64,000 bases of DNA, taken from assembly GCA_027002265.1 (NCBI GenBank), contig JAMOTM010000056.1, positions 30,977 to 94,976 of the forward strand. The letters are read 5' to 3'. Both the position numbers and the translations under genes were made by a program. The notes below the pieces were generated by a model, which saw only the letters and a list, made by a program, of their open reading frames with translations, was not told the origin of the DNA and did not search any database. How positions within the stretch are numbered: the stretch's first letter is position 1; every line of letters begins with the position of its first letter. This document shows positions 14,429 to 56,587 of the stretch, piece after piece. The stretch comes from Aquificota bacterium (GTDB taxonomy: Bacteria > Aquificota > Aquificia > Desulfurobacteriales > DQVG01).

Positions 14429-15150
14429 GCACCGGTTATAAGTCTATAGAGCCATCCAGGTGAAGTAACAACTTTGGAGTAATTACGGGTATTATATATT
14501 ATTTTTAAATTAGATATTCTTGTAGAGTCCACTATATTATTTGGAGAAATATCTCTTGGAGAAACTTCTCCAGATATAGTAATTATAAGTTCTTCTCCAT
14601 TAACATTATATTGTTTTTTTCCTAAAATAAATAAGTTTCCATTAGGTAAAACCTCAATAACTTTTGCAGATATATATATATTTTCTAATTTTGTAGAAAG
14701 CTTTCCACTTGAGGAAGATTGAAAATTTGTAGAGGATTGCATAGAAATTCCAGTTTTAAAGTTTAAACCTGCAACATTTTGAGTATTTACACCTAAAAAA
14801 GAATTTAAAGAATTGGAATAGCTTGGATTTTTAGAAAAACTTCGTTGGGTTTGTGTTTCTGCACTTGGAGTTTCAGATACACGAATTAAAATAATATCTC
14901 CTTTTTTCCTAGCTACAGGATAAGCATAAGGATTATCTATATAATTTTGACTAAGTAAACTTCCCGTTATTTTTGGATCTTGAGGTAAAGGGGAATAGTT
15001 TATCTTTTTAGGAGTTAAAGGAGGTAAAGTGATTACTTTAATTTTATTTTCAGGCGTAGGTTTAGGTTGCTGCTCAGAACAACCTAAAAAAAATAAAAAA
15101 AAGATACCTATAAGGAAAATATTTAATTTTTGAGAAAAATGAAATTGCAT
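14416..15150 (-). CDS. flgH: Flagellar L-ring lipoprotein
   Basis: Motifs: GDIILIRVSE, ISAKVIEVLPNGNLFILGKK, ISGEVSPRDISPNNIVDSTRISNLKI. Start moved to ATG 15150 (MQFHFSQKLNIFLIGIFFLFFLGC, lipobox FLGC, RBS GGGGGAA). The longer ORF to 15279 runs through the livJ-like terminator hairpin. Confidence 0.9.
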   Translation of the reverse strand: MQFHFSQKLNIFLIGIFFLFFLGCSEQQPKPTPENKIKVITLPPLTPKKINYSPLPQDPKITGSLLSQNYIDNPYAYPVARKKGDIILIRVSETPSAETQTQRSFSKNPSYSNSLNSFLGVNTQNVAGLNFKTGISMQSSTNFQSSSSGKLSTKLENIYISAKVIEVLPNGNLFILGKKQYNVNGEELIITISGEVSPRDISPNNIVDSTRISNLKIIYNTRNYSKVVTSPGWLYRLITGAWPW

Positions 15151-15254
15151 TAATTCCCCCAAGGAAAACTTATATTTTAAAACTTTTAAATATATTATAC
15201 GGAAAAATATAAAGGATAATGTTAAAAGTTTAAAGAAGAGAAAAAAGAGATATA

Positions 15255-15286
15255 GGAAAAGAAAAGTAAGGGGGAACACCCCCCTT
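15255..15286 (-). terminator. Rho-independent terminator of the livJ-like gene
   Basis: On the minus strand: AAGGGGG-GTGTT-CCCCCTT hairpin (15268-15286), then ACTTTTCTTTTCC, 5 nt after the stop at 15292. Confidence 0.55.
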
Positions 15287-19780: not shown

Positions 19781-20974
19781 ATGAAACGTCAAAGAAATTT
19801 AAAATTATCTTCTAATAAATGTCCTATATATCCTTGTAGGTTTATAAATATATTAAACATACCTAAAATAAAATCTTTAATAGAAGATATTTTTTGCTTT
19901 GCCGAGTATACAGATTGCCAAAGATTTCTAAGACATCAAATGCATTTGGAAGTTCCCGAAGATTTATGGCCTATAGAAAGAATTTCAATCTCTGAAGTTT
20001 TAAAAAATATAGGTTTTTCTTTTGGAAAGGAAATAGAAAGATATAAAAGATTTTTTCAAAAATTTAAAAAAAGTGAATATTTCAAAAATGTGATTTTGAA
20101 AACTTTAACTTCTATAGAAAAGGGAATCTATAATAAAAGATTGAATTTTTTTAGAGCATTTTTTGAAAAATACTACGAGGAATTATTTATAAAAAAATTC
20201 AATAATCGATTCTTTTTAAAAATGGCATATTTAATTTTAAAAGAAAATATAGATGAAGCTATTTTCGACTCATCCTTTTTGGTCTATTCTACCTTTCTTT
20301 CAGAAAATATGTATCTTTGGAGTTTGCAAAATATTAAAAATTCTATTCTTAGAGCAAGGATTTTATCAAGCTTTACAAAATTAAACACTTTAGCTTTAAT
20401 CTTTATAAAAAGGAACGTAAAATTAATTAAGGAAATTGAAGAAATAAAAAAAACAAGAACTTATATTTTTAATATAAAAAACGAACTTTATATAGATCCT
20501 CTTACTAAGGTTTTAAATAGAAGATTTCTAGAAAATTATAAGGATGACATTTTAAAAAATTATTCTCATATTTTAGTTTTAGACATAGATCACTTTAAAA
20601 AGATAAATGATACATATGGTCATCAAATTGGAGATTTAGTTTTACAAAGTGTATGTAAAATATTAAAAAAGCTTTTAAGAAAAAAAGATTTAATTATAAG
20701 ATATGGTGGAGAAGAATTTATTTTGGCTATAAATGTACCTGATGATGAAACAGCTCTAAAAGTAGCAGAAAGAATTAGAAAAGCTATAGAAAATACCTTA
20801 ATTACTATAAATGATGATAAAATTAGAATTACAGTTTCCATTGGAATATCTAAAATAAATCCAAACAAATCTTTTGAAGAAATTTTCTTGCTTGCAGACA
20901 AAGCTTTATATGAAGCAAAAAGAAGTGGAAGAAATAAAGTAGTTTTTAAAAAGGAGTTTGAGGAATCTTATTAA
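19781..20974 (+). CDS. Diguanylate cyclase (GGDEF) with uncharacterised Cys-containing N-terminal domain
   Basis: Motifs: DPLTKVLNRRF, DIDHFKKINDTYGHQIGDLVL, RYGGEEFILA, ADKALYEAKRSGRNKV. Confidence 0.9.
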   Translation: MKRQRNLKLSSNKCPIYPCRFINILNIPKIKSLIEDIFCFAEYTDCQRFLRHQMHLEVPEDLWPIERISISEVLKNIGFSFGKEIERYKRFFQKFKKSEYFKNVILKTLTSIEKGIYNKRLNFFRAFFEKYYEELFIKKFNNRFFLKMAYLILKENIDEAIFDSSFLVYSTFLSENMYLWSLQNIKNSILRARILSSFTKLNTLALIFIKRNVKLIKEIEEIKKTRTYIFNIKNELYIDPLTKVLNRRFLENYKDDILKNYSHILVLDIDHFKKINDTYGHQIGDLVLQSVCKILKKLLRKKDLIIRYGGEEFILAINVPDDETALKVAERIRKAIENTLITINDDKIRITVSIGISKINPNKSFEEIFLLADKALYEAKRSGRNKVVFKKEFEESY

Positions 20975-29109: not shown

Positions 29110-30402
29110 ATGATAAAGGAAATATCTCCTATAACAAGAATAGAAGGTCACCTTAAAGTAGAGGTAGAGACCTCTCAAAATGTGGTAAAAAAAGCAAAAA
29201 TAGTTGGGGAAATGTATAGAGGTATAGAAAAAATTGTTGAAAATAGGCATTTTATGGATCCCATAAGAATAGTTCAAAGAGTTTGTGGACTTTGCTGTGA
29301 AGTTCATGGACTTGCTTCATGTAAAGCTATTGAAAACGCAATAAATGCTCCAGTTGAACCAAATGGAGACAAAATAAGAGATTTAATTATTTGTTTGAAT
29401 ATAATTAATGATCATTCTCTACATTTTTATCAATTAACTTTACCCGATTATATAGATTTTAGCGTTTTAGAAAATGTTCCTCTTTTTTTAAAAAATCCTC
29501 CTAAAGCTCCAGATTTAATTAGGGATAAAATAGTTGCAAAAAAATTTTTAAAAAAATATTTAGATTCCTTTAAATTAAGAACTAGAGTTTGTCAAGGAAT
29601 TGCTATCTTAGGAGCTAAAACTCCATTTGCTCACGCCATTTTAGTAGGTGGAGTTTCTACGAATATAAGAACAGATGATGTAGGATTTTTTGTATCTTTA
29701 CTAAATGATGTAAAAGACTTTTTAGAGGAATATAAAAAAGATATTTTATTTTTAGCGGAAAACTTTAAACATTTATTTGATATAGGAAAAGGCCCTGGAA
29801 ATTACCTTTCAGTTCCTCACTTATATGTTCCGGGTAAAGTTTTAATAAATGGAAAAGAAGAAGAATTTGATGTTTCTTATGTTACGGAAGATGAACCTAA
29901 ATATGGATTTATAAAAACTCCAAGATATAAAGGATATGTAGTTGAAACAGGCCCTTTAGCTGAATGTATTTTAACGAAAAATAAAGAGTTTTATGATTTA
30001 TTAAAGAAATTAAATGTTCCAAAAGAAAAAGCTAACTCCTTAATGGGACGGCTTCTTGCAAGATATGTAGATAGCTTAATGGCTTATAGATATGCAAAAG
30101 ATCTTGTAGATAGTATTTTGGCAAAAGGAAATAATATTTATTGGAAAGATCCAAAGGGACTTTATGAAGGAGAAGGTTATGGTTTTGTAAAAGCTCCAAG
30201 AGGAGCTTTAATTCATTATATAAAAATTCAAGATAGTAAAGTGAAAAAATACTCTATTATTTCTCCATCTACTTGGAATTTTTCTGCAGGTGGTCCTGTA
30301 GAAATAGCTTTAAAGGGATGCCCGGTAGAAAGTGAAGATTTAGTAAATGTAGGAAGAATAATAAGAAGCTTTGATCCATGTACAGCGTGCTCTATTCAGT
30401 AG
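29110..30402 (+). CDS. [NiFe]-hydrogenase large subunit (short form, no C-terminal extension)
   Basis: N-terminal ITRIEGH and RVCGLCCEVH (RxCGxCxxxH). C-terminal Ni-Fe ligand pair in FDPCTACSIQ, immediately followed by TAG. RBS GGAGG. Confidence 0.9.
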   Translation: MIKEISPITRIEGHLKVEVETSQNVVKKAKIVGEMYRGIEKIVENRHFMDPIRIVQRVCGLCCEVHGLASCKAIENAINAPVEPNGDKIRDLIICLNIINDHSLHFYQLTLPDYIDFSVLENVPLFLKNPPKAPDLIRDKIVAKKFLKKYLDSFKLRTRVCQGIAILGAKTPFAHAILVGGVSTNIRTDDVGFFVSLLNDVKDFLEEYKKDILFLAENFKHLFDIGKGPGNYLSVPHLYVPGKVLINGKEEEFDVSYVTEDEPKYGFIKTPRYKGYVVETGPLAECILTKNKEFYDLLKKLNVPKEKANSLMGRLLARYVDSLMAYRYAKDLVDSILAKGNNIYWKDPKGLYEGEGYGFVKAPRGALIHYIKIQDSKVKKYSIISPSTWNFSAGGPVEIALKGCPVESEDLVNVGRIIRSFDPCTACSIQ

Positions 30403-30517
30403 GAAATTAATTTTTATAAAATAAATTTAAAATGGAAACTTAAAACTAATAAGTTTATTGGACGAAAATAATAAAAAAAATTTTTGGGATAAGGGGTCTT
30501 TTTAGGAGGAAATAAAA

Positions 30518-31441
30518 ATGAAAACTACTCGAAGAGAACTTTTAAAATATTTAGGTAGCTTAGCTGCTCTTTTAGGACTTCCAAAAAGTGTGGGAAAAGC
30601 TTATGCTGAAACTTTACGAAAACTTAAGGAAGGAAAAACTAAAATAATAATTATTTCTGGTCAGGCTTGTTCAGGATGTATTTTATCTGCAACTTATTCG
30701 GATGGTCCTTTTTTTGATGATTTAGTTATTATGATAAAAAATATTTTACATCCAACTTTAGCAGCTTCTCAGGGGAAAAATTTTATAAAAGAACTTTATA
30801 AAGTTATAGATGAAGGAGATTATATTTTAACTACGGAAGGTGCTGTTCCGGGAGAGGAAAAGTACTGTGAATTTGGTGGAAAACCTTATTCTGAAATTCT
30901 TTTAGATGCAGTAAGAAATGCTAAATTTTTAGTAAATATGGGGACATGTGCCTCTTATGGGGGTGTCCCTGCAGCAAAAGGTAATCCTACAAAAGCTATG
31001 AGTGTGCCCGAGTTTTTAAAGAAAAACGGTGTAAATATTCCTTATGTAAATGTTCCAGGATGCCCAGTTAGAAGCGATAGAATACTTGCAACTTGGCTTT
31101 ATATAGCAACTTTTGATAAGCTTCCTCCTATAAATCAAAAAATTAATGCTCCAAAAATGTTTTATGAAGATATTATTCACTATAACTGCGAAAGATATCA
31201 GTACTTTACTCAAGATATATATGCTAAAAAACCTGGAGATAAATTTAAATGCCTTTTGGCCCTTGGATGTAGAGGACCTATAACTTATGGAGATTGTTCT
31301 TATAAACGCTGGAACTGTGGAAAAAATTATTGTATAGCCGCCGGAACACCTTGTATAGGTTGTTCTAATCCAAAATTTCCTTTTGATAAGCCAATTTATA
31401 CATCTCCACAAGAAGTTTTAAAAGGTTTAAAGATTCAATAA
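30518..31441 (+). CDS. [NiFe]-hydrogenase small subunit with twin-arginine (Tat) signal peptide
   Basis: Tat motif: MKTTRRELLKYLGSLAALLGL...AYA. FeS ligand motifs: GQACSGC, GTCASYGG, PGCPV, HYNCERY, CLLALGCRGP, CIAAGTPCIGCSNP. Confidence 0.9.
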   Translation: MKTTRRELLKYLGSLAALLGLPKSVGKAYAETLRKLKEGKTKIIIISGQACSGCILSATYSDGPFFDDLVIMIKNILHPTLAASQGKNFIKELYKVIDEGDYILTTEGAVPGEEKYCEFGGKPYSEILLDAVRNAKFLVNMGTCASYGGVPAAKGNPTKAMSVPEFLKKNGVNIPYVNVPGCPVRSDRILATWLYIATFDKLPPINQKINAPKMFYEDIIHYNCERYQYFTQDIYAKKPGDKFKCLLALGCRGPITYGDCSYKRWNCGKNYCIAAGTPCIGCSNPKFPFDKPIYTSPQEVLKGLKIQ

Positions 31442-31455
31442 GAGGGTGAGGAAAA

Positions 31456-33795
31456 ATGAGATTAAAGTATTTATTACCCGGAATATCTTTTGTAACTTTA
31501 TTGATTTTAGCAATAATTTTCTTCATATATTCTCAATATTCCATAAATTCCATAAAAAAAGAAAATATCAACTTAGCTAAAGCTTTAGGTAATACTGCTT
31601 TTAGTAGTGCTTATGATTCTTTACGAAAAGGTAATATGGTACTTTTTGATCATATTTTAAAGTCTATTGCTTCTCAAAAAATTATTCGTGAGTTTAGTTT
31701 AGCAGATAAAAATGGAGTAATAGAATACTCTTCAAATCCATCTTTACTTGGAAAAAAAATCAATATTGAAGAAATAAAAAAGAAATTTAAAATAAAAGAA
31801 TTAAAACCAGAAACAATGTATTTAACTTTAGATAAAAATGAGAAAGCAACTTTAGTTTTTAAAGCTATAAAAACAATTCCTTATTGTATTAGATGTCATA
31901 CTACCTGGAAGCTAGGAGAAATAAATTCCTATTATATTTTAAAAGTAGATGCAAGAAATATATTAACCGTAATAACTACAACCCGACTAGTGAACCTTCT
32001 TTACTTACTGGCAGCTATTGTTATTTTATTTATCACTTTATTCATTTTAAATCACCAATTTATCAGACCTCTTGAAAAAGTGAAAAGTGCTTTAAATGAA
32101 ATTTCTAAAGGAAATCTGAAAGTTAAACCTAAAATCTATGTAAATAACGAAATTCAGGAGGTTGCAAGAGCATTAAATAGAACTTTAAAAAATATAAATT
32201 TTATATTTTCTCAAATAAATGAGTTTGCAGAAAATGTAAATAAAGGTAATGTTTTTGTAAATATAGATTATGGACAAACTCAAGGAGATTTTAGGGCTAC
32301 CTTAGAAAAATTAAATGAAATAGTCAAAAATCTTCAAAAATTTGTGAAAGGATTAGAAGATGTTTTAAATAAAATTGAATCTATGAACATAGGAGTAAGT
32401 GTAAATGGAGCTTCTGCTCGGGGAAATTTAATAAAGATTTATGAGTATTTCCAAAAGGTATTTAATGATCTTAAAGAAACTATAGAAACAGTAACTAAAT
32501 CTATAAAAGAACTTTCTAGCAAACTTGCGGAAGGAGAATTTGAAACCGAGGATCCCCTTAAATATAAAGGAATATGGCAAGATATTGTTATATCTTTAAA
32601 TGCTATTGTAAATAGTATTGAAAAAGTAACTACCTATTTAAAAAGAATTCTTGAAGATACTATAAATGGAAAATCTTCTCAAATTGATATAGAAGAGTTT
32701 AAAGGAATTTATAGAGAAATTATTGAAAATCTTTTAGATTTTCAAAATAAACTTAAAGAAGCAATTAAAGAAGTTCAAAATATTTCTAAAGCTATTGCAG
32801 ATGGTAATTTTGATACATCTTTAAATACAGCTAGTTTACCACCGGCTCTATTACCAATAGGAGAGGCTGTGGAAGATATAAAAAATAATATTAACCGTGT
32901 TATTGTTGCTCTTGATAAAGCTATTAAAAAAATGGCCATGGGAGATTTATCTGTTCGTATAAATGAAAACGAATTTAAAGGTAAGTATAAAGAAATTGCC
33001 AAAATGTTTAATTATGGAGTTAGACAGCTTGCTCAAGCCATTGCAGTTTCTTTATCTACTTTTGAACTTATTGGTGAAAGAGTAGAAAAAACAATTCAGG
33101 AACTTATGAAAACCATAAATACCTTCAACATGCAAAATAAAAAGACTGAAGAAATTTCTCAGGAAATCCTACGTCTTATTGACGTTCTAAGGAATTTAAA
33201 GAAAGAAATGGATAGGGTAAAACAAATTTCCAGGGTTACCGAGGAAGATTTAGTGAAAACTCAGGAATCCTTTGAACATATTGCAAATATTCTTAAAACC
33301 CGTCTAGAAGAACTTGATAAGATCGTTGATATTATTCTTTCTATTTCTGAGCAAACAAATTTACTTGCCTTAAATGCGGCAATTGAAGCGGCCCGTGCTG
33401 GAGAAATGGGAAGAGGTTTTGCAGTAGTTGCAGATGAAGTTAGAAAGCTCTCAACTCAAGTTTCCGAACAAGCTAATGAAATACGTTCTACTATTTCTCA
33501 ACTTTCAGATGATATTAGAAAATATATCTTTGAAAATCTCTCTAAGCTTCTTGAAAATATTAAAAATAGCATGAATAACCTTTTAGATGTTATTGAAAAA
33601 GTATCTACCACTACCGAAAAAGAAGCATCTCAAGCTGAAAAATCTAAAGAAGATATTATTGCGCTTGAAAATCTTGCAAAAGAATCTAGCGAAAAAATTA
33701 AGAAAATTGTGGAAGACTTTAAAAAGGTTGAAGAACTTCTTACAGATTTATCCGAAGTATCTAAGAAATTTAAAGTTGGAGATTTAAAGAAATAA
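31456..33795 (+). CDS. Methyl-accepting chemotaxis protein with periplasmic CXXCH (heme c) sensor domain and poly-HAMP-like array
   Basis: TM1 about aa 6-25 and TM2 about aa 176-199. Periplasmic loop with C144-I-R-C147-H148 (nt 31885-31899), the only Cys residues in 779 aa. About 400 aa of repeated HAMP-like units. Canonical hairpin [35 protein letters not shown]. Confidence 0.9.
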
Positions 33796-33872
33796 AAAAT
33801 TAAATCGAAAAGTTAAAATTTATAACAAATAAGGCGATTTAATAAAGAAAACTAAATAGGAAGGAGGAGAAA

Positions 33873-34151
33873 ATGAAAAAGTTGTTAGCAATTTTAGGTA
33901 TATTGTTTGGAACAGCTTTTGCTCAATGCTATGTACCTTGTCAAACTTGCGTATCTGGATATGTTGTAATGTATCCCGGAACATATGTTCCAAATGTTTG
34001 TAATAATCCTTGTTGCTGTGAATACTGTAGTTTTTGTTATTCTTCTTGCTGTTTGCCTTCAGGGTGTATTTACGGCCCTGTTAATTGTCCAACATGTTAT
34101 CCAACATGCTGCCCAACTCAGTCTATAATTGTTAATCAAGTGGCAAACTAA
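33873..34151 (+). CDS. Secreted cysteine-rich small protein (16 Cys in the 75-aa mature part)
   Basis: Strong RBS GGAAGGAGGAG. Signal peptide MKKLLAILGILFGTAFA|Q. The mature part is C/P/Y/T/V-rich, with CCC, CC, CxxC and CxC runs and no K, R, H or D. Confidence 0.7.
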   Translation: MKKLLAILGILFGTAFAQCYVPCQTCVSGYVVMYPGTYVPNVCNNPCCCEYCSFCYSSCCLPSGCIYGPVNCPTCYPTCCPTQSIIVNQVAN

Positions 34152-34161
34152 GGAGGAAAAA

Positions 34162-34509
34162 ATGAAAAAAATATTTATATCTTCTTTAGTAGTCACATCC
34201 TTCCTTCTTGTAGGTTGTGAATGTACTGATGTACAAACAACTCCTCCGCAAACTACTTCTTTTCAAGCCAATATTCCACAAATTCAAACATGTGATGCAT
34301 GTGCTAATCAAACAAGTACAAAAATTACGAAGATTTTACCTACTGAAAAAAAAGTAATTCAAAATGTAATAACCGTAAATCCAAAACCAATATGTACTTG
34401 CCCAAGCATACCAATGGTTCCAGCAAATTATTTTGTAACATATGAACCACTTAATGATTATCCAGTCACCTATAAGACAAAATACACAGAACCTTGCTCT
34501 TGCTACTAA
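34162..34509 (+). CDS. Small lipoprotein with four CxC/CxxC pairs
   Basis: ATG 34162 preceded by AGGAGG (34151-34156). Lipobox LLVGC. Cys pairs: CEC, CDAC, CTC, CSC. The ORF-track start 34129 lacks an RBS. Confidence 0.65.
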   Translation: MKKIFISSLVVTSFLLVGCECTDVQTTPPQTTSFQANIPQIQTCDACANQTSTKITKILPTEKKVIQNVITVNPKPICTCPSIPMVPANYFVTYEPLNDYPVTYKTKYTEPCSCY

Positions 34510-34521
34510 GGGGGATAAAAA

Positions 34522-35346
34522 ATGATAGAAATTATAATAAAAGCTATTTTTGCTATAGCTCAAGTAGTAAATTTAAATACAGTATATACGTATACACCTT
34601 ATACCAAACCTACAATACAACCTTATAATCCAACCTTGCCTTCTACACAACTTAACTTGCAAAATTCCCCAAAAATTGTATATCCTTTACCTCAAAATAC
34701 TAATAATTTACCTAGAGCAGCTCAACCTGTACCCCCGCTAACCTATCAACCTCAAAGAAGATCTAATACAGTTCAAAATATTCAAATATATACAACTTTT
34801 CCAAAAGCTTCATATTTACCATCTATATCAAGAAAAGGTATACTTTTACCTATTTTACCTTCAAGAACAAAAATAGGATACTTAAATTCAAATATTATCT
34901 TTTTAGCTGATCAACTTTTAAGAAATATGGATAAGGAATTTAAAAAATATCCCGTTATTGTAACTACATTTGTAAATTTAAATAATTTTAAAGAAACAAG
35001 TGATTTAGGAAGACTACTAAAGGAAAATTTAGTTCATGAACTTCAAGTAAGAGGTTGGAAGGTTATTGATATTAATTATATGCCTAAAATTGTTGTAAAT
35101 AAATATGGAGAATTTGTTTTAACAAGAGATATGAAACGTATTATAAAAAAATATAAAGTTGCCTCAATTTTAGCTGGAACTTATACAGTAGCTGATAATT
35201 CTCTAATTGTAAATGCTAAAATTATAGATGCAAAAAGTGGTCTTATTATTTCAACCGGACAATTTGAGATTCCTTTAGAATTTGTTGAGGATTTATTAAA
35301 AAATAGTTCTTTAAAACCTGTTGAAATTATAGTAACGGGAGAATAA
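34522..35346 (+). CDS. Envelope protein: P/Q/T/Y-rich low-complexity N-terminal half + FlgO-like (LpoB/CsgG/TolB-N-like) C-terminal domain
   Basis: RBS AAGGGGGA. The C-terminal VIVTTFVNLNNFKETSDLGRLLKENLVHELQVRGWKVIDI ... ILAGTYTVADNSLIVNAKIIDAKSGLIIS fits the FlgO-family pattern as I remember it. Confidence 0.5.
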   Translation: MIEIIIKAIFAIAQVVNLNTVYTYTPYTKPTIQPYNPTLPSTQLNLQNSPKIVYPLPQNTNNLPRAAQPVPPLTYQPQRRSNTVQNIQIYTTFPKASYLPSISRKGILLPILPSRTKIGYLNSNIIFLADQLLRNMDKEFKKYPVIVTTFVNLNNFKETSDLGRLLKENLVHELQVRGWKVIDINYMPKIVVNKYGEFVLTRDMKRIIKKYKVASILAGTYTVADNSLIVNAKIIDAKSGLIISTGQFEIPLEFVEDLLKNSSLKPVEIIVTGE

Positions 35347-35356
35347 AAGGAAAATA

Positions 35357-35938
35357 ATGAAAAAATTTTTATCCCTTTTTCTTGTAGGAGCGGGATTTCT
35401 CCCGCTCTACTCTTGTGTTTATCAGGAAGATGTTACACCTTATTATATTGACAAATATTCTGAGCCTATTTCATACGCCAATATAAAGTATGTTCCTTTA
35501 GATGATCTTTTAAATCACATAAAACCTCAAGAAATAAAATATGTTTTTGATAAAATAGTAATCTCTATGTGTCCATGTATATGTAAATATAATAAAGTTA
35601 TTGTTACAGATTTACCAAATCTTTCTTATTTAAAAGTAGATAAGCTTTCCTCTTATTTTGGAGATACTTTAAGAACATCTGTTTCAGATATGTGTCATAA
35701 ACCTACCATTTTAGCTGAATTTTCAAAGTATCTAAAGATAAATACTCTTGGAATAAAAGTAAGAAGTAGAAAAGTAAATGATCTATTAAATAAAAAGTAT
35801 AAAGGATATTCTGTAGCTTTTTTAACAGGAACTTATCAAATAAATAATGATAAAATTACTGTGTTTGTAAAGTTTATAGATGCAAAAACTGGGAAGATTC
35901 TTTGTGCCAAGGAAGGTATTATAAATATATATCCTTAA
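35357..35938 (+). CDS. Lipoprotein with FlgO-like C-terminal segment
   Basis: Signal plus lipobox-like FLPLYSC. C-terminal VAFLTGTYQINNDKITVFVKFIDAKTGKIL repeats the motif of the preceding gene. Confidence 0.45.
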   Translation: MKKFLSLFLVGAGFLPLYSCVYQEDVTPYYIDKYSEPISYANIKYVPLDDLLNHIKPQEIKYVFDKIVISMCPCICKYNKVIVTDLPNLSYLKVDKLSSYFGDTLRTSVSDMCHKPTILAEFSKYLKINTLGIKVRSRKVNDLLNKKYKGYSVAFLTGTYQINNDKITVFVKFIDAKTGKILCAKEGIINIYP

Positions 35939-35959: not shown

Positions 35960-36307
35960 ATGAGTGAATGTATATTTTGCAAGATTATAAATAGGGAAAT
36001 TCCCTCTGAAATTGTATATGAAGACGATAAAGTAATTGCCTTTAAAGATATTAATCCTCAAGCTCCTATTCATATTCTTATTTGTCCAAAAAAACATATA
36101 GAAACTGTAAATGATATAAAAGAGGAAGATAAAGATCTTATTGGTCACATATTTTTAGTAGCTAAAAAAATTGCAAAAGATTTGAATGTAGCTGAAAGAG
36201 GTTATAGAATCATAGTTAATTGTAACAAAGAAGGTGGCCAAGAAATCTATCATATTCATTTTCATTTTTTAGCAGGAAAACCACTTGGAAAACTTGTTTG
36301 TCCTTAA
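35960..36307 (+). CDS. HIT-family (histidine triad) nucleotide hydrolase
   Basis: Motifs: CIFCKII, AFKDINPQAPIHILICPKKH, histidine triad HIHFHFLAG. Confidence 0.93.
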   Translation: MSECIFCKIINREIPSEIVYEDDKVIAFKDINPQAPIHILICPKKHIETVNDIKEEDKDLIGHIFLVAKKIAKDLNVAERGYRIIVNCNKEGGQEIYHIHFHFLAGKPLGKLVCP

Positions 36308-36362
36308 CTAATATTTATATTTAAAAGTAAGTGAATCTAAATTGAGAAAATGGAGCTACTTT

Positions 36363-36971
36363 ATGAAAGGTTTTGGTTATTACAAAGAAAAACTTTCAAA
36401 CCGTCAAATCCCCATTTTTGCAGATTTAGACTTAAATCTTGATAAAGGAATAGTTTTTATAAAAAATATACGTCCCTCAACTTTAGCAGCCATTTTAAAA
36501 TTTGGAGATTTAATGGAATTTGTCTTTACAGATAAAGATAATAAGTCAAAAGATATAGTTTTAGAGATCGTAACGGAGACTGCTCCTGGTATATATCAAG
36601 GAAAAATACTAAAGCTTTCTGAAAATAAAAGAAGATTTCCCCGTTTTAATGTTAGAAACTTAGATGTAAGAGTTATTGTTGCCGGAACTTACTTTGGATT
36701 TTTAAGAGATATTTCTTTAAGGGGTTTTTCGGTAGAAATAAAGGAAGTTCCCGATAAACTTTTTTTAAAAAAAACTTATCCTGTGAAAATACTTTATAAA
36801 GGTAAAGAATATAAGTTCTCTTCTCAACTGGTAGGTATGTCATATGATGATGAGAAAGAATGTTATATTCTTAGATTCAGAATTTTAGAAAGTTTAAGAA
36901 ATATTAAACTTATAGATGAACTTTATAAAAAACTTTTTGAAGATGAGTTAAAACTATTTCTAAGTTCCTAA
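36363..36971 (+). CDS. PilZ-domain c-di-GMP receptor protein
   Basis: PilZ motifs RRFPR (RxxxR) and DISLRG (DxSxxG). ATG 36363 with GGAG upstream is preferred over TTG 36342. Confidence 0.75.
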   Translation: MKGFGYYKEKLSNRQIPIFADLDLNLDKGIVFIKNIRPSTLAAILKFGDLMEFVFTDKDNKSKDIVLEIVTETAPGIYQGKILKLSENKRRFPRFNVRNLDVRVIVAGTYFGFLRDISLRGFSVEIKEVPDKLFLKKTYPVKILYKGKEYKFSSQLVGMSYDDEKECYILRFRILESLRNIKLIDELYKKLFEDELKLFLSS

Positions 36972-37016
36972 CAATTTGAAATTAGAGTTTAAATTACTTT
37001 AGCTTTTATTGAAAGG

Positions 37017-39131
37017 TTATTTATCATTTTTTAACTTTTCTAAATATTCTTTAACCTTTTCAAAGGGCATAGGAGGAGAGAAATAATATCCTTGTAGATA
37101 ATCGACTCCTAGTTTGTTTAAAAGTTTTGCAGTTTCTTCATCCTCAACAAATTCTGCAATGGTTTTTAAGTGGAGTTTTCTTGCCATAATTACAATAGTT
37201 TCTACAATTTCCTGCTTTTTCCTATTAATTTTTAAATCTTTAACCAAAGATCCGTCTATTTTAAGGTATTTAATAATTCCTCGAATAGATAAATCCAAAA
37301 CTGTATGTAAAGAAGAAAATCCAGTTCCAAAATCATCTATTGCAAAATCTAAATTTAGTTCTTTTCTTAGTTTTTCAATTTGCTCTAAATTTTCTAAAAT
37401 AAATTGTTCGGTAATCTCAAAGACGGTATTTCCAAGGTATATGTTTTTTAACTCTTCCAAAATATGTTTAGAATACAAAGATTTTGGAGACAAATTAACA
37501 AAAAGCTTTACAGGAAGTTCTTTTCTAATTTTGGATATATATTTAAGCATTTGAATATCAATATCTAAAATAAGACCTGTTTCAATAGCTACATCAATGA
37601 ACATACCTGCAGGTAAAACTTTATTATTATCTACAATTCTTGCAAGACATTCAAACGCGTATGGTTTGTATGTTTTTGAGTCTACGATAGGTTGAAAATA
37701 AGCAATAACTTTCTGTTCTTTTATAGCTTTTTGTAAAATTTTTTCTTTTTCCATAATATCTTCAAGTTTTAAACGAAAATCTGCATGACCTTCATAAATA
37801 ACTATTGAACCCTTGCTTTGGTTTTTTGCATAATCTTCCAAATATTCAACAAAGGAAAAAAAATCACATGAATTTTTTAAACATTTAGAACAATCTATTT
37901 TTTCCTTCACTACCATAGTAAATTTTGGAATATACTCTAAACCATTTTCTAAATATATGGGTTTTTCAAGTTTGTCTTTTATACTTTTTAAAAAAGCATA
38001 ATCCTTAAATTTTTTATCTTGAGAAGGAATGAAAATTACAAAAGTATTAGACCAAAATCGTGAGATTAACGGATTAAAATCTTTAAAAACAGATTTTATT
38101 CTTTCAGCAATTAATCTTAAAAGATTATCTCCAGATTTCCTACCGTAAATTTCATTAAATCTTTTAAACTTTACAAGATCTAAAATAATGATATATCCTT
38201 TTTTATTTTTTGTATACTCAAAAAATACATCTCTGTTTAAAGTATTTGTTAAATCATCTTTGATAAGGAGTTCCTCCATTTTTTTTCTTTCTTTACAGAA
38301 TAAAATTAAGGAAGAAATAACAAGAATAACTCCAAATAAAATAGAGATTATAGATAACCTTTCGTAAAATTTCTCTTTCTTTTGTAACTTTGTTTCTTCC
38401 TCTAAAAGTTCCATCTTTGTATTTTTTAAAAATATATAAAATTGATTTTTTAAATCCTCAAATATGCAATTTATTAAGTTATCTATTAAGTTTGTAGAAT
38501 TAAACATATTTTTGTCAAAGTGTAAATTACATTTTTGTATAAAATCTTCAGAATAATAGAATTTTAGTAACCTAATTAAGTGATAAATATAATCCTTGGA
38601 TATATTACTATTAGTAACAAAAGTTTTTGAAAAATCTTGAAGATGCCAATATAAATTTTCTTCTTCATTTTGTAAATCCTTAAATTTTAAAGGAAAAGAA
38701 AAAGAACCTTTTCCTTGCAAATTTTTAAAAATTCTTTTCTCGAGTTTTCCAATAAGAAATGCAAAATCAAAAGTTTGGGCTTGATTGTGTTTTATCTTAT
38801 TTATTAACACTTCTAAATCTTTTTTTAATTTTTGATCATCTAGTAAATTTAAAGTTTGCTCTAATATATTTTCAGACTTAATTTTTAATTTTTTGTTTCT
38901 TTTAGAAAGGGTATAATATATTTCAGCTTGATGAATATTTATTAAAGCTTGAAAATATTTTTCTATATTATGCAAATTATAATTTACATAATGATACTGC
39001 GTTAATTTTTGATAATAATCTTCCTTAAGCTTTAAACCTATAGCTCCAATAATAAAAAAAATCATAGATAAAAGTCCTATTATAGGGCTTATAATAATTT
39101 GAAAACGTTTCTTTCTTGTCATATCCTTCAC
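37017..39131 (-). CDS. Membrane-anchored degenerate-GGDEF + EAL c-di-GMP phosphodiesterase
   Basis: Two TM segments flank a ~240-aa N-terminal domain. The GGDEF-like domain has RFWSNTF in place of GGDEF. EAL domain motifs: FECLARI, NLSPKS, EITE, DDFGTGFSSL, KIDGSLV, AEFVE, QGYYFSPP. Confidence 0.85.
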   Translation of the reverse strand: MKDMTRKKRFQIIISPIIGLLSMIFFIIGAIGLKLKEDYYQKLTQYHYVNYNLHNIEKYFQALINIHQAEIYYTLSKRNKKLKIKSENILEQTLNLLDDQKLKKDLEVLINKIKHNQAQTFDFAFLIGKLEKRIFKNLQGKGSFSFPLKFKDLQNEEENLYWHLQDFSKTFVTNSNISKDYIYHLIRLLKFYYSEDFIQKCNLHFDKNMFNSTNLIDNLINCIFEDLKNQFYIFLKNTKMELLEEETKLQKKEKFYERLSIISILFGVILVISSLILFCKERKKMEELLIKDDLTNTLNRDVFFEYTKNKKGYIIILDLVKFKRFNEIYGRKSGDNLLRLIAERIKSVFKDFNPLISRFWSNTFVIFIPSQDKKFKDYAFLKSIKDKLEKPIYLENGLEYIPKFTMVVKEKIDCSKCLKNSCDFFSFVEYLEDYAKNQSKGSIVIYEGHADFRLKLEDIMEKEKILQKAIKEQKVIAYFQPIVDSKTYKPYAFECLARIVDNNKVLPAGMFIDVAIETGLILDIDIQMLKYISKIRKELPVKLFVNLSPKSLYSKHILEELKNIYLGNTVFEITEQFILENLEQIEKLRKELNLDFAIDDFGTGFSSLHTVLDLSIRGIIKYLKIDGSLVKDLKINRKKQEIVETIVIMARKLHLKTIAEFVEDEETAKLLNKLGVDYLQGYYFSPPMPFEKVKEYLEKLKNDK

Positions 39132-39221: not shown

Positions 39222-40238
39222 CTAATTATTTAAAGTTTTATAGGAAATATATTTTTTAGGAAGATATAAAGCTTTAGCTTTACCATCTAGGGCAAAAAAT
39301 GGTAAAGCTAAGGGAGATAAGGTAGAATAAAGTTTTAATAAAATTTTATCTCTTTTTTTATTTTCTACTTTAAAATGGTAAACACTTTTTACGGGATCAC
39401 AATCAAAAAGGTAGTAAGGTTTAATTTTTAAATCTCTTAAAGTTTTAAAAAGTTTAGATAACTCTTTATAACTATCATTAATTCCTTTAAGTAAAACAGT
39501 TTGAGAATAAACCTTAAAATTTTTTGAAAGTTTTTTTAAAAGATTTATATTTTCCTCTATAAGTTCATTTATATGATTTATATGAATAACAAAAATCAAT
39601 TTTTCGAAAGCTTTAAATTTATCTATAAGATCATCTGTGAAAAAATTTGGAGCATTTATTACAGATTTACTTGCAAATCTAATTATTTTTATGTGCTTGA
39701 TTTTTTCTAAATTCCCTAAAAGAGAAAATAAAATATTTTTAGAAAGTAAAATTGGTTCACCTCCAGAAACTAAAACTTCCTCAATTTCTTTGTGCTTTTT
39801 TAAATAATCTAGGATTTTTTCTAAATCTTTGTTGTCTATCAAAAATGACTTTCCCCAATTTTTCTTTCTCATACAAAATCTACAAAAAGCAGGGCACATA
39901 TTTGTAGTAACTATTAGAGCTCTATTTGGATATTTATGAACTAAAATTGGAATTTTTCCTTTAAAAACTTTTCCATAAACCTTTTCTTGATATGGATCTA
40001 CAGTTTTTTGTTTAAAACTTTTAAGCTCATCTATATGAGGAAAATACATCTTAAAAATTGGATCTTCAAAAGAAAAGTTTTTTATTTGCTTTAGTATGAA
40101 AGGTGTAATCTTAAAAGGATAAATTCTACTTACCTTTCTAAAAACAAAGGAATAATTTTTTTCCTTTACTTTTTTTAAAATAGAATTTATGTTGATATAG
40201 CTTTTTTTTAGCATCCTATAAATCCATTTCGAAATCAA
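39222..40238 (-). CDS. KamA-family radical SAM protein (lysine 2,3-aminomutase/EpmB-like)
   Basis: Motifs: TNMCPAFCRFCMRK (CxxxCxxC), VLVSGGEP, characteristic KPYYLF. Confidence 0.85.
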   Translation of the reverse strand: MISKWIYRMLKKSYININSILKKVKEKNYSFVFRKVSRIYPFKITPFILKQIKNFSFEDPIFKMYFPHIDELKSFKQKTVDPYQEKVYGKVFKGKIPILVHKYPNRALIVTTNMCPAFCRFCMRKKNWGKSFLIDNKDLEKILDYLKKHKEIEEVLVSGGEPILLSKNILFSLLGNLEKIKHIKIIRFASKSVINAPNFFTDDLIDKFKAFEKLIFVIHINHINELIEENINLLKKLSKNFKVYSQTVLLKGINDSYKELSKLFKTLRDLKIKPYYLFDCDPVKSVYHFKVENKKRDKILLKLYSTLSPLALPFFALDGKAKALYLPKKYISYKTLNN

Positions 40239-48620: not shown

Positions 48621-48967
48621 AAAATGAAGTTTATGTAAAAAAGTATTCTATAGTGATAAAAGATTTAAAACTTGTTTTGCATTGTGGAGATATTCAAGAA
48701 GAAAAAATTCTCGGAATAGAAACTTTAATGGATTTTGAAATTGAAGCTATTGATTTTTTGGATTATATGGTTATTTATAAGTTTATAGAAGATTACTCAA
48801 AACATGAGTTTAAATATCTAGAGGACTTTTGCTTTTCTTTAGCTAAAGAAATGTTTAAAACTTTTAAACAAATTATTAAAATATACATATACATAAGAAA
48901 AAAATCCATCCCCTTTAATATTTATGCTCAAGAAATAGGAGTTAAATTAGAATTTGAAAAAAATTAA
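48587..48967 (+). CDS. folB: Dihydroneopterin aldolase-like T-fold protein
   Basis: TTG start 7 nt after AAGGAGG. The pattern IVIKDLKLVLHCGDIQEEKILGIETLMDFEIEA ... IYIYIRKKSIP...IGVKLEF parallels FolB by eye. Confidence 0.5.
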   Translation: MDFSKNFSSQVKNEVYVKKYSIVIKDLKLVLHCGDIQEEKILGIETLMDFEIEAIDFLDYMVIYKFIEDYSKHEFKYLEDFCFSLAKEMFKTFKQIIKIYIYIRKKSIPFNIYAQEIGVKLEFEKN

Positions 48968-48977
48968 GGAGAAAAAA

Positions 48978-50054
48978 ATGGAAAAAAAATTAAAATGTAA
49001 GGTTTTAGAGAAAATATTTAATAATGAGTATTCCGAAGAGGATATAAAACTTATATCCGAAATTGCGCGTGAGGAACTTAAATTTTTGGTTAGAAATAAT
49101 ATTCCAATAACTCCCCAAAATTTCGAAGCATGGTTTTATGTATTTTGCTATGTTTTAGAAAATCTAAAATATATTCCCAGCGACGAAGAACTAAAAGAAC
49201 TTTTTAAAAATTTTTATAAAAATGAAAAAGCTATTTTAAAACAAGGTTTAAATCCCAAAGTTTTAAAAGAATTTTCTGAAAAATTAGAAAAGGAAATAGA
49301 TAATGTTTTAAAACTTATAGATAATCATACCAATTCTTTAGATAAACATCAAAAAAACTTAGAAAATATAGAAAAGAAAACTCAAAATAAAAATTTAAAT
49401 GTTGAAGAGCTTTTAAAAGAGATACTAAATGAAGTTCACTCTTTAAAAGAACAAAATGAATCTTTAAAAGTAAAACTTCAGGAAGCTCAACTTCAAATAA
49501 GTGAACTTAAAGAGGAACTTCAGCAAACAAAAAGAGAAGCTACTATAGATTTTCTTACGAAAATTCCAAATAGAATGTCGTTTATGAGAGCTTTAAGAGA
49601 TTTTGTAAGAGATTACTATGAAAGAAAATATCCTTTTGCTTTAATTATGGTAGATATAGATCACTTTAAAAATATTAATGATACTTATGGTCATCTTTGT
49701 GGGGATAAAGTTTTAAAAGCAGTTGCGGAAACTTTAAAGCTTAACTTAAGAGCACGAGATATTATAGGTAGATATGGAGGGGAAGAATTTGGAATTATTT
49801 TACCTGGAGTTAACTTAGCCCAAGCTGTAAGTATCGCAGAAAGATTAAGAAAAGCGGTTGAAGGTATAACCATAGATTGTAATGGAGTTCCAATAAAAGT
49901 TACTATATCTTTAGGTGTAGCTACTATGAAAGATGGTTTAGATGAAGAGAAACTTATAAGTTTAGCTGATGAGGCTTTATATTTAGCAAAAAGAAGTGGA
50001 AGAAACAGGGTTAAAACAAGCGTAGATGTTGAAATAGAAAAAAAGTCTAAGTAG
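48978..50054 (+). CDS. Diguanylate cyclase (GGDEF) with coiled-coil N-terminal region
   Basis: Motifs: DFLTKIPNR, DIDHFKNINDTYGHLCGDKVL, RYGGEEFGIIL, ADEALYLAKRSGRNRV. ATG 48978 after AAGGAG. Confidence 0.9.
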   Translation: MEKKLKCKVLEKIFNNEYSEEDIKLISEIAREELKFLVRNNIPITPQNFEAWFYVFCYVLENLKYIPSDEELKELFKNFYKNEKAILKQGLNPKVLKEFSEKLEKEIDNVLKLIDNHTNSLDKHQKNLENIEKKTQNKNLNVEELLKEILNEVHSLKEQNESLKVKLQEAQLQISELKEELQQTKREATIDFLTKIPNRMSFMRALRDFVRDYYERKYPFALIMVDIDHFKNINDTYGHLCGDKVLKAVAETLKLNLRARDIIGRYGGEEFGIILPGVNLAQAVSIAERLRKAVEGITIDCNGVPIKVTISLGVATMKDGLDEEKLISLADEALYLAKRSGRNRVKTSVDVEIEKKSK

Positions 50055-51384: not shown

Positions 51385-53241
51385 ATGGGTAAAATTTCAA
51401 AAAAACTTCAAAGTAAATTTATTTGGTATTTTCTTATATTCACCATTTTGGCTTTAGCACTTTCAAACTTTATAATTATTTCCATAATAGGTGCAAAAAG
51501 TAAATATGCTTTAAGCATACTTCTTAATAATTACTTTGTTAACTCAAATACAATTAATGAATTAATAAATAGACTTGTAACCTCTCCCTTTGTTTCTCAC
51601 TTAACAGTTTTAAAAGATGGAGTTATATATAAGGATTTAACAGGCCTTGCAGATAGTTATAACTACATCCTTACAAAAAGTTTTATAGGAAAAAATGGTA
51701 TTTATGAGGTAAAATTATTCATATCTTTACCTGATCTAGTTAAATATGTATATATAAAGCTTTTTTATTTAAGCTTTATATTAACTCTTCTTTTTGATGT
51801 ATTTTTCCTTCTTTTTTATAGAAATATAAAAAATACATTTATTAGACCTATAGAAGTTCTTTTATCAAATATTAAAGAAAGAAAAATAAGCAAGTTAATA
51901 TCTATAAAAAATAAAGAATTTTTTGAAGCTCAAAAAGAACTTGAAGATATTTTTTCCGTTATTAGAATTTCTCAACAAAAAATTCATTTTATATCTGAAA
52001 TTTTAGAGGTCTTATCTCGAAGTGAAAATTTCAAGGAAGATTTTAAACATTTACTTAAAAAGCTTGTAAATTCTTTACCTCAAATAGATGGATTTTTATT
52101 AGTTGAAAAACAAAATGATGATGGTCTGAAGGTCAAAGTTATAGATAAACATTTTGAAAAAGAATTTAAAGTAGATAAAGAAAGCTTTAGCTTGTATGCT
52201 TTTAACTTAATCAATCCTAAACTTGTTCCAGAAGTAGATAAACTTGGAGTTTTATCCGAAGAAGAAAAGGAAATTTTTATAAAGGATGCTTATGTAATTC
52301 CTATTAATTTATTTTCAAAAAAAATAGGAGCTTTTATAACTTATTCAAAAGGAAAATTATTTTTATCTGATATTGAAAAGGAATTTTTTAAACTTCTTGG
52401 ATTTACTATCTTTTTAGCTTTAGTTTTAGATAAAGTTTATAAGGAGGCTCAAAACATAGATAAGCTCAAAGCTGAGCTTTTAATAAAGGGAATAACAAAT
52501 TATTTAAATATATTAGAAAATAGGTATATATATAGCTATAAAACTCAAAGAATTCTTTCTTTAATAGAAAAATTAAAAGATACTTTAAGCAGTTTAAATT
52601 TAGATTTAGAAAAATTAAAAAGAGCTGCAACTTTAATGGATATAGGTCTTTTTATGATGCCAGATAAAATTGTTTTAAATTTTGAAGAAGATTTGGAGGA
52701 AAAGGAAAAAAATCTCTATGAGCTTCATCCAATAATCGGAAGTATATATATAAACTCTTTAAATGCTTGTGATGAAGATATAAAAAGAGCAATTTTAGAA
52801 CATCATGAAAATATAGATGGAAGTGGTTTTCCTTCGCAAAAAAAGGGAAATGAAATTTCAAGTTATGCAAAAGTTTTAAGAATTTTAGATGATTTTGATA
52901 GTTTAAGTTATAAAGAAAACAAAGAAAAGGCTTTAGAATTTTTAAGAGAGCAAAAGGGAAAATATTATGATGAAGAAATTTTAGATAAACTTTTACCAGA
53001 ACTTGAAAAAATAGAAATTCCAAAAGTATCTTCCTTATTACCTGAAGAGATTTTAGAGCTGCAAAGAGAAGTTCTAGAAATAGAAAAAAATAGTTTAAAT
53101 ATAGCTTTACCAAAAGATCTTGAAAAAATAGAAAAGGAAATAGAGGAAAATAACAAAGATATAGAGGACAATGAAACACAAAAGACAAAAGAATCTTCTC
53201 AAGAAAATTTAGAAAACTTGAAAGATACTCAAAATCCTTAA
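51385..53241 (+). CDS. Membrane-anchored HD-GYP-like protein with degenerate HD motif
   Basis: Two TM segments flank a ~90-aa loop, then a GAF-like middle region. The C-terminal domain has LMDIGLF in place of HDxGK but retains LHPIIG, HHENIDGSGFP and LDDFDSL. Confidence 0.7.
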   Translation: MGKISKKLQSKFIWYFLIFTILALALSNFIIISIIGAKSKYALSILLNNYFVNSNTINELINRLVTSPFVSHLTVLKDGVIYKDLTGLADSYNYILTKSFIGKNGIYEVKLFISLPDLVKYVYIKLFYLSFILTLLFDVFFLLFYRNIKNTFIRPIEVLLSNIKERKISKLISIKNKEFFEAQKELEDIFSVIRISQQKIHFISEILEVLSRSENFKEDFKHLLKKLVNSLPQIDGFLLVEKQNDDGLKVKVIDKHFEKEFKVDKESFSLYAFNLINPKLVPEVDKLGVLSEEEKEIFIKDAYVIPINLFSKKIGAFITYSKGKLFLSDIEKEFFKLLGFTIFLALVLDKVYKEAQNIDKLKAELLIKGITNYLNILENRYIYSYKTQRILSLIEKLKDTLSSLNLDLEKLKRAATLMDIGLFMMPDKIVLNFEEDLEEKEKNLYELHPIIGSIYINSLNACDEDIKRAILEHHENIDGSGFPSQKKGNEISSYAKVLRILDDFDSLSYKENKEKALEFLREQKGKYYDEEILDKLLPELEKIEIPKVSSLLPEEILELQREVLEIEKNSLNIALPKDLEKIEKEIEENNKDIEDNETQKTKESSQENLENLKDTQNP

Positions 53242-56586: not shown

Positions 56587-56587
56587 G

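Follow-up and report, generated by a model that had tools for sequence, protein, structure and literature searches.

A Cys/Tyr-rich exported mini-protein gene at the head of a FlgO-domain operon in an Aquificota bacterium: a possible accessory of a flagellar outer-membrane scaffold

Flagellar motors have gained lineage-specific periplasmic and outer-membrane scaffolds (e.g., the H-ring, the T-ring, the basal disk, and the cage), and to our knowledge nearly all of those characterised come from Proteobacteria and Campylobacterota. In Campylobacter, flgP-flgQ is reportedly a small operon of exported proteins and lipoproteins that builds a lineage-specific basal disk associated with the outer membrane. 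In Vibrio cholerae, the outer-membrane lipoprotein FlgO (Cys16) and FlgP together make up a 58-fold ring within the H-ring, which surrounds the L-ring (bioRxiv 10.64898/2025.12.02.691832). Here we describe a locus with FlgO-domain genes in a 64-kb stretch of DNA from an Aquificota bacterium (contig JAMOTM010000056.1, positions 30,977 to 94,976; the whole stretch is called the window below), in which four closely packed open reading frames (ORFs) encode a very small Cys/Tyr-rich protein (ORF1), a small lipoprotein (ORF2), and two FlgO-domain proteins (ORF3 and ORF4; Table 1). ORF1 is, with high confidence, a genuine protein-coding gene of a narrow lineage. Judged from gene order and domain content, ORF2 to ORF4 are a widespread conserved module of a small lipoprotein and two FlgO-domain proteins that also exists without the peptide.

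The locus resembles the Vibrio H-ring genes (FlgO/FlgP/FlgT) in the FlgO domain of ORF3 and ORF4, in the clustering of the genes, in products that are directed to the outer membrane and include lipoproteins (ORF2 and ORF4), and in the position of a related locus (L014-L016) within a flagellar gene cluster. Unlike the Vibrio system, however, it encodes two FlgO paralogues, its cluster holds no FlgP (LPP20-type) or FlgT, ORF3 is without a lipobox, and neither the small lipoprotein with its DYPVTYK motif nor the Cys/Tyr peptide found in three lineages has a Vibrio counterpart; the host, an uncultured bacterium with 26.6 % GC in the window, is also not a gammaproteobacterium. The Campylobacter basal disk is similar in that a small accessory protein is needed beside the ring former, but FlgQ is not Cys-rich, and Pfam scans, the only comparison made, gave no sequence relationship. 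Their domain matches place ORF3 and ORF4 in the FlgO family as new members, in an arrangement that is itself new, and we infer that the locus encodes a lineage-specific kind of flagellar outer-membrane scaffold with an unusual add-on.

That add-on, ORF1, had been singled out in an earlier reading of the sequence (the original prediction) for a strong ribosome-binding site, a Sec signal, and a mature part with 16 Cys in 75 residues, one Glu, and no Lys, Arg, His, or Asp, and all of these features are present. By inspection, the N-terminus has the n-, h-, and c-region pattern of a signal peptide and an AxA site, in the cleavage context AFA/QC (a slash marks the cut) and without a lipobox; the predicted outcome is Sec-pathway export and cleavage after AFA, leaving a 75-aa periplasmic or envelope mini-protein. 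The mature part contains 16 Cys (21 %), 9 Pro, 9 Val, 8 Tyr, 5 Thr, and 1 Phe, its single Glu is the only residue of the K, R, H, D, or E type, and Cys and Tyr together make up about one-third of it. The Cys residues fall in CC, CCC, CxC, and CxxC spacings, and the protein is laid out as a conserved N-terminal block (PCQ…YV[VI]MYP.TY..N[VI]C.NPC) with variable, Cys/Tyr-rich middle and C-terminal parts. The contrast drawn in the original prediction with a K/E-rich surrounding proteome is borne out by the window ORFs of at least 150 aa, in which Cys averages 1.0 %, Lys 12.5 %, and Glu 8.3 %, and in all six frames of the window stop-free 75-aa stretches with 13-16 Cys occur in ORF1 only. The GC content of the gene is 36 % versus ~27 % in its neighbours and 26.6 % in the window. 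Amongst the 60 window ORFs of at least 90 aa, its Shine-Dalgarno (SD) sequence ranks third by duplex energy, computed against a generic anti-SD, and of the operon's genes ORF1 is probably translated most.

Table 1. Features of the ORF1-ORF4 operon and the flagellar genes flgI and flgH, in window positions (a slash marks a predicted cleavage site)
Feature	Position	Strand	Description
σ28-type promoter-like motif	33814-33838 (33814-33841 with TTT)	+	TAAA-N15-GGCGAT, extended TAAA-N15-GGCGATTT
Shine-Dalgarno sequence of ORF1	33859-33869	+	GGAAGGAGGAG; duplex energy -12.3 kcal/mol
ORF1, Cys/Tyr-rich mini-protein gene	33873-34151	+	92-aa translation: MKKLLAILGILFGTAFA/QCYVPCQTCVSGYVVMYPGTYVPNVCNNPCCCEYCSFCYSSCCLPSGCIYGPVNCPTCYPTCCPTQSIIVNQVAN
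ORF1 signal peptide	33873-33923	+	MKKLLAILGILFGTAFA; predicted signal peptidase I (SPase I) cut after AFA
ORF1 mature part and stop codon	33924-34151	+	75 aa (QCYVPCQ…VAN)
Tandem repeat inside ORF1	34089-34117	+	12-nt, 2.4 copies, in frame, encoding PTCY-PTCC-PT
ORF2, lipoprotein	34162-34509	+	115 aa; lipobox LLVG/C; ATG 10 nt after ORF1 stop
ORF3, FlgO-domain protein	34522-35346	+	274 aa; PF17680, 134.8 bits, E 2e-39
ORF4, FlgO-domain lipoprotein	35357-35938	+	193 aa; lipobox PLYS/C; carries CPCIC; PF17680, E 1.7e-5
FlgI	13262-14428	-	
FlgH	14419-15279	-	

Selection on the reading frame was assessed in a codon alignment of the window gene with its 68 %-identical orthologue, P0002. The ratio of non-synonymous to synonymous substitution rates (dN/dS) is 0.08 with synonymous sites saturated, and 38 of the 60 differences lie at codon position 3; because of this low ratio and the third-position excess, ORF1 is considered a real gene. 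Constraint is tightest in the N-terminal block (dN/dS 0.023, with 14 synonymous versus 3 non-synonymous changes), compared with 0.17 elsewhere, and the gene as a whole is more constrained than that of the lipoprotein ORF2 (0.28). Indels between the orthologues are all in frame and coincide with short tandem repeats: in the alignment the 12-nt repeat of ORF1 coincides with a 4-codon indel relative to the P0002 gene (contig L003), which has a perfect 15-nt repeat of its own (2.1 copies, encoding YNCYC). Three lineages that are ~34 % apart in FlgO divergence carry an intact gene with its signal and SD. The possibility raised with the original prediction, that the overlapping reverse frame might be conserved instead of ORF1, is not borne out, as the low dN/dS, the third-position differences, and the in-frame indels all belong to the forward frame, on which purifying selection is strong.

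Homologues of ORF1 are very few. A word-indexed search of 5.8 billion proteins returned near-identical copies and P0002 only, and when 1.84 billion cluster representatives were searched exhaustively with a HMMER profile, a single further protein came up, P0017 (E 8e-4; BLASTP E 3e-13 against the window ORF1), which is the most distant orthologue. No family was matched in Pfam or NCBIfam at E up to 1 except for a 9-residue signal-peptide match, searches of ORF1 and ORF2 against PHROGs gave nothing usable (signal-peptide noise only), the best hit in a PDB sequence search with ORF1 had E 0.23, and tblastn against plasmids and phages gave no match. Scans of metagenome contigs of the Joint Genome Institute (JGI) with the lipoprotein alignment and with the peptide alignment produced pattern matches, of which none was confirmed by tblastn and no locus was gained. 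ORF1 is almost an orphan, without characterised relatives. The original prediction had likewise placed it in no characterised bacterial family, and the homologue search it suggested has brought two diverged orthologues among billions of proteins.

The three orthologous lineages share the synteny slot, in which a methyl-accepting chemotaxis protein (MCP) gene is followed by the peptide and the lipoprotein: P0002 lies on a 1.2-kb contig (L003) in the order peptide, lipoprotein, FlgO, and on contig L017 the 3' end of the MCP gene precedes P0017 and a lipoprotein with CNVC and CRC. All three orthologues keep FAQ at the cleavage site, and P0017 retains the signal (…AFA/Q, in the cleavage context AFA/QYY), PCQ, YVIMYPxTYxxNxCxNPC, and a small number of the later Cys; many sites that are Cys in the window protein are occupied by Tyr. 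About 6 of the 16 Cys of ORF1 are conserved across the three orthologues. The numbers of Cys and Tyr in the mature proteins are 16 and 8 in the window, 18 and 12 in P0002, and 7 and 22 in P0017, so that their sum stays at 24-30 of 75-76 residues; the constraint on ORF1 therefore seems to be one of composition ('Cys-or-Tyr-rich') around a small conserved core.

Four sister lineages (L008/L009; L010-L012; L013/L036/L039; L038) have the order MCP, an 82-177-nt spacer, lipoprotein, FlgO, FlgO2, HIT, and PilZ, with no ORF1. The four-gene cluster suggested by the original prediction is thus not one conserved unit, since its three downstream genes are widespread without the peptide and ORF1 is a narrow add-on. 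The peptide-bearing L017 is nested among the peptide-less lineages, both by lipoprotein identity and by an MCP tail (…DIKDKNxHN) that it has in common with L008, and the window and L003 form the other branch, apart from this group. The 177-nt intergenic region of L008 was compared with the L017 gene for traces of a former peptide gene, and no significant similarity was found. The simplest history consistent with this distribution would be an ancestral peptide gene followed by repeated losses.

Within the operon, the gaps between the four genes are 10-12 nt, and the SD of ORF2 (AAGGAGG) overlaps the ORF1 stop codon. A terminator scan from ORF1 to ORF4 gave nothing convincing, the one match (35387-35408) falling in the region that encodes the ORF4 signal peptide. 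Upstream, the promoter-like motif of Table 1 begins 19 nt beyond the MCP stop and stops 34 nt short of the ORF1 ATG. Its TAAA-N15-GGCGAT form has a single match in the window, where 0.1 would be expected. Each related locus (L001-L013, L017) likewise has it once, at the homologous position, and its CGAT core is invariant in all seven aligned intergenic regions. The motif fits the σ28 consensus TAAA-N15-GCCGATAA (PMC12784957) and may point to late-flagellar σ28 control of the operon, of which ORF1 is the first cistron because, where present, it is placed between the motif and the lipoprotein gene.

The product of the second gene was correctly described in the original prediction as a 115-aa lipoprotein encoded 10 nt downstream, with a LLVGC lipobox and four Cys motifs, which lie at CEC (19), CDAC (44), CTC (78), and CSC (112). 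A linker-like region of ~60 aa, predicted with low confidence, is followed by a C-terminal β-hairpin module of ~40 aa (VPANYFVTYEPLNDYPVTYKTKY) bracketed by CTC and CSC. ORF2 falls under no Pfam or NCBIfam model, and a PDB sequence search gave E 0.23 or worse. From its motifs and gene order, ORF2 is a member of a widespread, unannotated lipoprotein family, in which a disordered tether is joined to a Cys-flanked C-terminal β-hairpin motif ([DF]YPVTY[KR] or DFPVSYRSK), and which ranges from vent-metagenome bacteria to Geobacter and Desulfuromonadales metagenome-assembled genomes (MAGs), always directly upstream of a pair of FlgO-domain genes (window, L010, L013, L014, L018-L027). The CxC motifs are general to the family, and only the CxxC tracks the peptide: all three lineages with the peptide have it (as CDAC, CDVC, or CNVC), and all four without the peptide lack it; in these four the aligned position reads C..Y in L013 and Y..Y in L010, the motif is gone in L008, and the whole middle segment is absent in L038. 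The Cys counts of ORF2 to ORF4 show no systematic difference between lineages with and without the peptide. A derivation of ORF1 by duplication of the CxC-hairpin-CxC module of ORF2 was rejected, as hhalign aligned the signal peptide only (probability 11 %) and BLASTP gave E 1.5. In a separate case, the small lipoprotein of a Desulfobacterales MAG (L026, 5545-5853) ends in a Cys/Tyr-rich …CGSYYYSCCSGCKTKG… in place of DFPVSYRSK, which recalls the composition of ORF1.

Of the two FlgO-domain proteins, ORF3 is the closer to characterised FlgO, matching the V. cholerae FlgO chains of the in-situ motor structures (PDB 9YDS/9YFG) with E 2e-18 over 124 residues, and ORF4 scores 25.1 bits against the PF17680 cut-off of 22.6 bits. 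The N-terminus of ORF3 is an unusually short signal-like sequence (MIEIIIKAIFAIA/Q, of AIA/Q type) with no positive charges and is not that of a lipoprotein; its first part (34522-34860, residues ~14-113) includes a low-complexity linker of ~90 aa rich in P, Q, Y, T, and N that varies greatly in length among orthologues. In the closest out-group (L014-L016), an 81-aa lipoprotein (…DYPVTYKTK), FlgO, and FlgO2 are encoded between fliD-fliS and flgB-flhB-fliN. In the window, flgI and flgH lie alone beside genes for a periplasmic binding protein and a chloride channel, ~20 kb from the module, so the flagellar genes of this genome are scattered. An LPS (lipopolysaccharide) heptosyltransferase is also encoded, and the gene content marks the genome as that of a flagellated diderm. 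It is probable that ORF2 to ORF4 build a FlgO-type outer-membrane flagellar scaffold that is expressed as a late flagellar operon.

The operon is flanked by genes for an MCP (a 779-aa HAMP/MCP chemoreceptor, upstream), a PilZ protein, and a GGDEF-EAL protein. Downstream (35960-39131), a HIT-family protein gene and a PilZ-domain protein gene are followed by the convergent GGDEF-EAL gene, a synteny kept in all related loci, and because this order is conserved it suggests that control by cyclic di-GMP (c-di-GMP) is tied to the FlgO module. Other GGDEF proteins are encoded at 19781-20974 and 48954-50054, and HD-GYP-like HD_5 proteins at 106-1134 and 51385-53241.

Our preferred reading, which as a whole statement we rate at somewhat less than an even chance, is that ORF1 is a lineage-specific, dispensable periplasmic accessory and cross-linker of a FlgO-type ring. 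ORF1 would be exported as an abundant accessory of the FlgO scaffold, its translation coupled to that of the lipoprotein, and disulfides, possibly together with Tyr contacts, would staple it to other copies of itself or to the lipoprotein through the latter's Cys motifs, the prime candidate partner being the CxxC that is present only alongside the peptide. The FlgO-type ring would thereby be stiffened or stabilised, and the low-complexity Cys/Tyr segments would grow and shrink by in-frame repeat slippage around a core with about six conserved Cys. Amongst the three roles offered by the original prediction, the best match is that of a structural partner for the FlgO-like proteins encoded downstream, with the 10-12-nt packing, the one motif, and the same gene order in two other lineages; its genuine, Sec-exported, Cys-rich mini-protein stands, while its metal and OmcA analogies fare less well (see below).

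Several observations weigh against this reading. The expression, location, and disulfides of ORF1 are predictions from sequence, and the AlphaFold2 models from shallow alignments, of which the original prediction had suggested one for ORF1, are uninformative both for ORF1 (predicted local distance difference test (pLDDT) score of 43) and for ORF2 (46 overall, with ~57-68 in the C-terminal β-hairpin, residues 85-108). The peptide is dispensable for the module, since four sister lineages keep the operon without it, and the correlation between CxxC and peptide comprises seven lineages, with no more than 2-3 events that are independent. An H2-using vent anaerobe may have a periplasm so reducing that disulfides are not stable there, and no Dsb gene is found in the window. 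As to the flagellar part, the nearest FlgO homologue, ORF3, has no lipobox and no Cys at all, and no match to the FlgP, LPP20, or FlgT families was found among ORF1 to ORF4 or the scanned window ORFs. Neither fliA nor a flagellin gene was seen in the window, so that putative σ28 control rests on the motif. In Desulfuromonadales and Geobacter MAGs, the module (a lipoprotein with …DFPVSYRSK, FlgO, and a Cys-rich FlgO2) stands next to housekeeping genes (nadD/rsfS and ruvCA, as read from ORF translations), and in L040 a FlgO pair lies in a non-flagellar setting beside purB and bipA; because FlgO pairs thus occur outside flagellar clusters as well, the flagellar role is probable rather than proven.

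The evidence bears differently on the other explanations that can be offered. That ORF1 is a spurious ORF or a decaying, functionless gene might be suspected from its absence in four sister lineages, its low-complexity composition, and its raised GC content, but this is hardly credible given that a dN/dS of 0.08 with saturated synonymous sites contradicts decay and that the gene is intact, with signal, SD, and in-frame indels, in three lineages. We also consider it unlikely that ORF1 is a periplasmic thiol-rich buffer of metal or sulfide, metallothionein-like in function, with its place in the operon due to chance or to co-regulation with motility. The 21 % Cys in CC, CCC, CxC, and CxxC spacings, the export signal, the CxxC and CxC of the adjoining lipoprotein, the [NiFe]-hydrogenase and HypB-like genes in the window, and a source that may be a vent habitat laden with metal and sulfide would all suit such a buffer, and high Cys density with CxC and CxxC is shared with the metallothioneins SmtA and BmtA and with the copper storage protein Csp1, which is also exported. 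Yet ORF1 matches neither a Pfam metallothionein nor any other family at E up to 1, and its 8 Tyr, 1 Phe, and many Val, Ile, and Pro are unlike the aromatic and Val/Ile/Pro content of metallothioneins. With 7 Cys and 22 Tyr in P0017, the thiolate capacity is gutted although the ORF, the signal, and the synteny persist, and the synteny of hydrogenase, MCP, and module occurs in L010 without the peptide. Nor is there any sequence match to SmtA, BmtA, or Csp1, from which ORF1 differs in being rich in aromatic and β-branched residues, in having no His and no helical-bundle prediction, and in Cys that are not conserved. Homology to metallothioneins was rejected on the same grounds (no Pfam or NCBIfam model match, PDB E 0.23, 8 Tyr plus 1 Phe, and only ~6 of 16 Cys conserved). 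The chlamydial OmcA/OmcB proteins resemble ORF1 as small, very Cys-rich exported envelope proteins that are thought to cross-link through disulfides and have a partner gene adjacent, but OmcA is a lipoprotein, whereas ORF1 has an SPase I site, no lipobox, and no Pfam match; ORF1 is moreover Tyr-rich, with interchange of Cys and Tyr, and belongs to a FlgO operon rather than to a peptidoglycan-poor envelope. Homology to OmcA was rejected on the AFA/QC context, the AFA/QYY of P0017 with no Cys there, and the lack of a Pfam match.

A further explanation leaves ORF1 unattached to any ring, as a secreted or surface product that is either a disulfide-rich antimicrobial or signalling peptide or a Cys/Tyr-rich adhesive or matrix protein, the latter analogous to mussel-foot or spore-coat proteins and expressed along with late flagellar genes to attach the cell to surfaces. 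The small size, Sec signal, and probable N-terminal Gln agree with this, as do the fast sequence turnover, repeat slippage, and patchy occurrence that are typical of accessory or ecological genes, and the conservation of Cys and Tyr richness rather than of exact positions. We nevertheless give it little credence, because the neighbourhood holds no gene for immunity, an ABC transporter, or outer-membrane export and no route across the outer membrane is evident, the neighbours (MCP, lipoprotein, two FlgO, HIT, and PilZ) are the same with or without the peptide, no bacteriocin or phage family is matched in Pfam, NCBIfam, or PHROGs, and a fixed partner is what one would expect from the dN/dS of 0.023 in the N-terminal block and from translation that is coupled to that of the lipoprotein. 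Two specific candidates were rejected, namely a Sec-dependent or disulfide-rich bacteriocin (no adjacent immunity or export genes, no family match) and a ribosomally synthesised and post-translationally modified peptide (RiPP) matured by a radical-SAM enzyme, whose gene (39222-40238, minus strand) is 5 kb off on the opposite strand and is kept in peptide-less loci. Finally, ORF2 to ORF4 could be a non-flagellar, general outer-membrane lipoprotein complex of the FlgO/TolB-N/CsgG-like fold class, with ORF1 as lineage-specific cargo or partner (e.g., a subunit of a secreted fibre or envelope layer). The housekeeping neighbours of the triplet in Desulfuromonadales loci and L040, the JGI label 'TolB-like' on some module members, and the ~20 kb that separate the module from flgH/flgI in the window give this some weight, but it seems rather improbable in view of the conserved σ28-like motif, the module inside a flagellar cluster in the closest out-group (L014-16), the H-ring FlgO as the only solved homologue, and the MCP, PilZ, and c-di-GMP enzyme genes as immediate neighbours.

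The cross-linker reading of ORF1 can be taken further by analogy. Keratin-associated proteins (high-sulfur and high-Gly/Tyr) and the spore-coat or exosporium proteins CotY/Z and CdeC form matrices cross-linked by disulfides or through Tyr, and they resemble ORF1 in a composition of Cys, Pro, Thr, Ser, Val, and Tyr and in short in-frame repeats that lengthen and shorten; the composition and repeat dynamics of ORF1 are thus reminiscent of cross-linking matrix proteins. Unlike these cases, the host here is of another cell type, a diderm with a genome of non-sporulating type, and the likeness is one of analogy, with no homology. It is a speculative and on balance doubtful suggestion that ORF1 founds a new class of envelope protein, a keratin-associated-protein-like Cys/Tyr matrix mini-protein that covalently cross-links the FlgO-type flagellar ring via the CxxC/CxC lipoprotein; an excess of ORF1 would then be made from the late-flagellar promoter and joined by disulfide, and perhaps Cys-Tyr or Tyr-Tyr, links.

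Other features of the window are noted for completeness. Upstream of the operon (29110-33795), a short [NiFe]-hydrogenase large subunit of 430 aa and a small subunit with a Tat signal (30518-31441) are followed 15 nt on by the MCP, an order of hydrogenase and MCP that recurs in the relative L010, and an H2-sensing hydrogenase may be coupled to chemotaxis. Further on (56570-60952) lies the gene for a 1460-aa SMC protein whose N-terminal ATPase head is interrupted by an intein splicing domain (PF14890, E 8e-22). An Rfam scan of the window gave no rRNA and no other match, a GTDB scan gave FlgO relatives at 61 % or lower, and the best PDB hits of RpoD and FlgI were not diagnostic of the taxon. The sample labels of the source metagenomes look like hydrothermal vents, a reading of labels that is unconfirmed.

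ORF1 is a tiny, compositionally extreme, and real gene that annotation pipelines and homology searches cannot name, and in one small clade it heads a conserved, unannotated three-gene FlgO module that spans vent bacteria to Desulfuromonadales. The peptide-bearing and peptide-less lineages provide a natural comparison for what a covalent cross-linker adds to a ring. If ORF1 had a metal or redox function, it would stand as a periplasmic thiol protein of a new type; if instead it were a cross-linking matrix protein, it would give the rotary motor of a vent bacterium a brace that is covalent and heat-stable.

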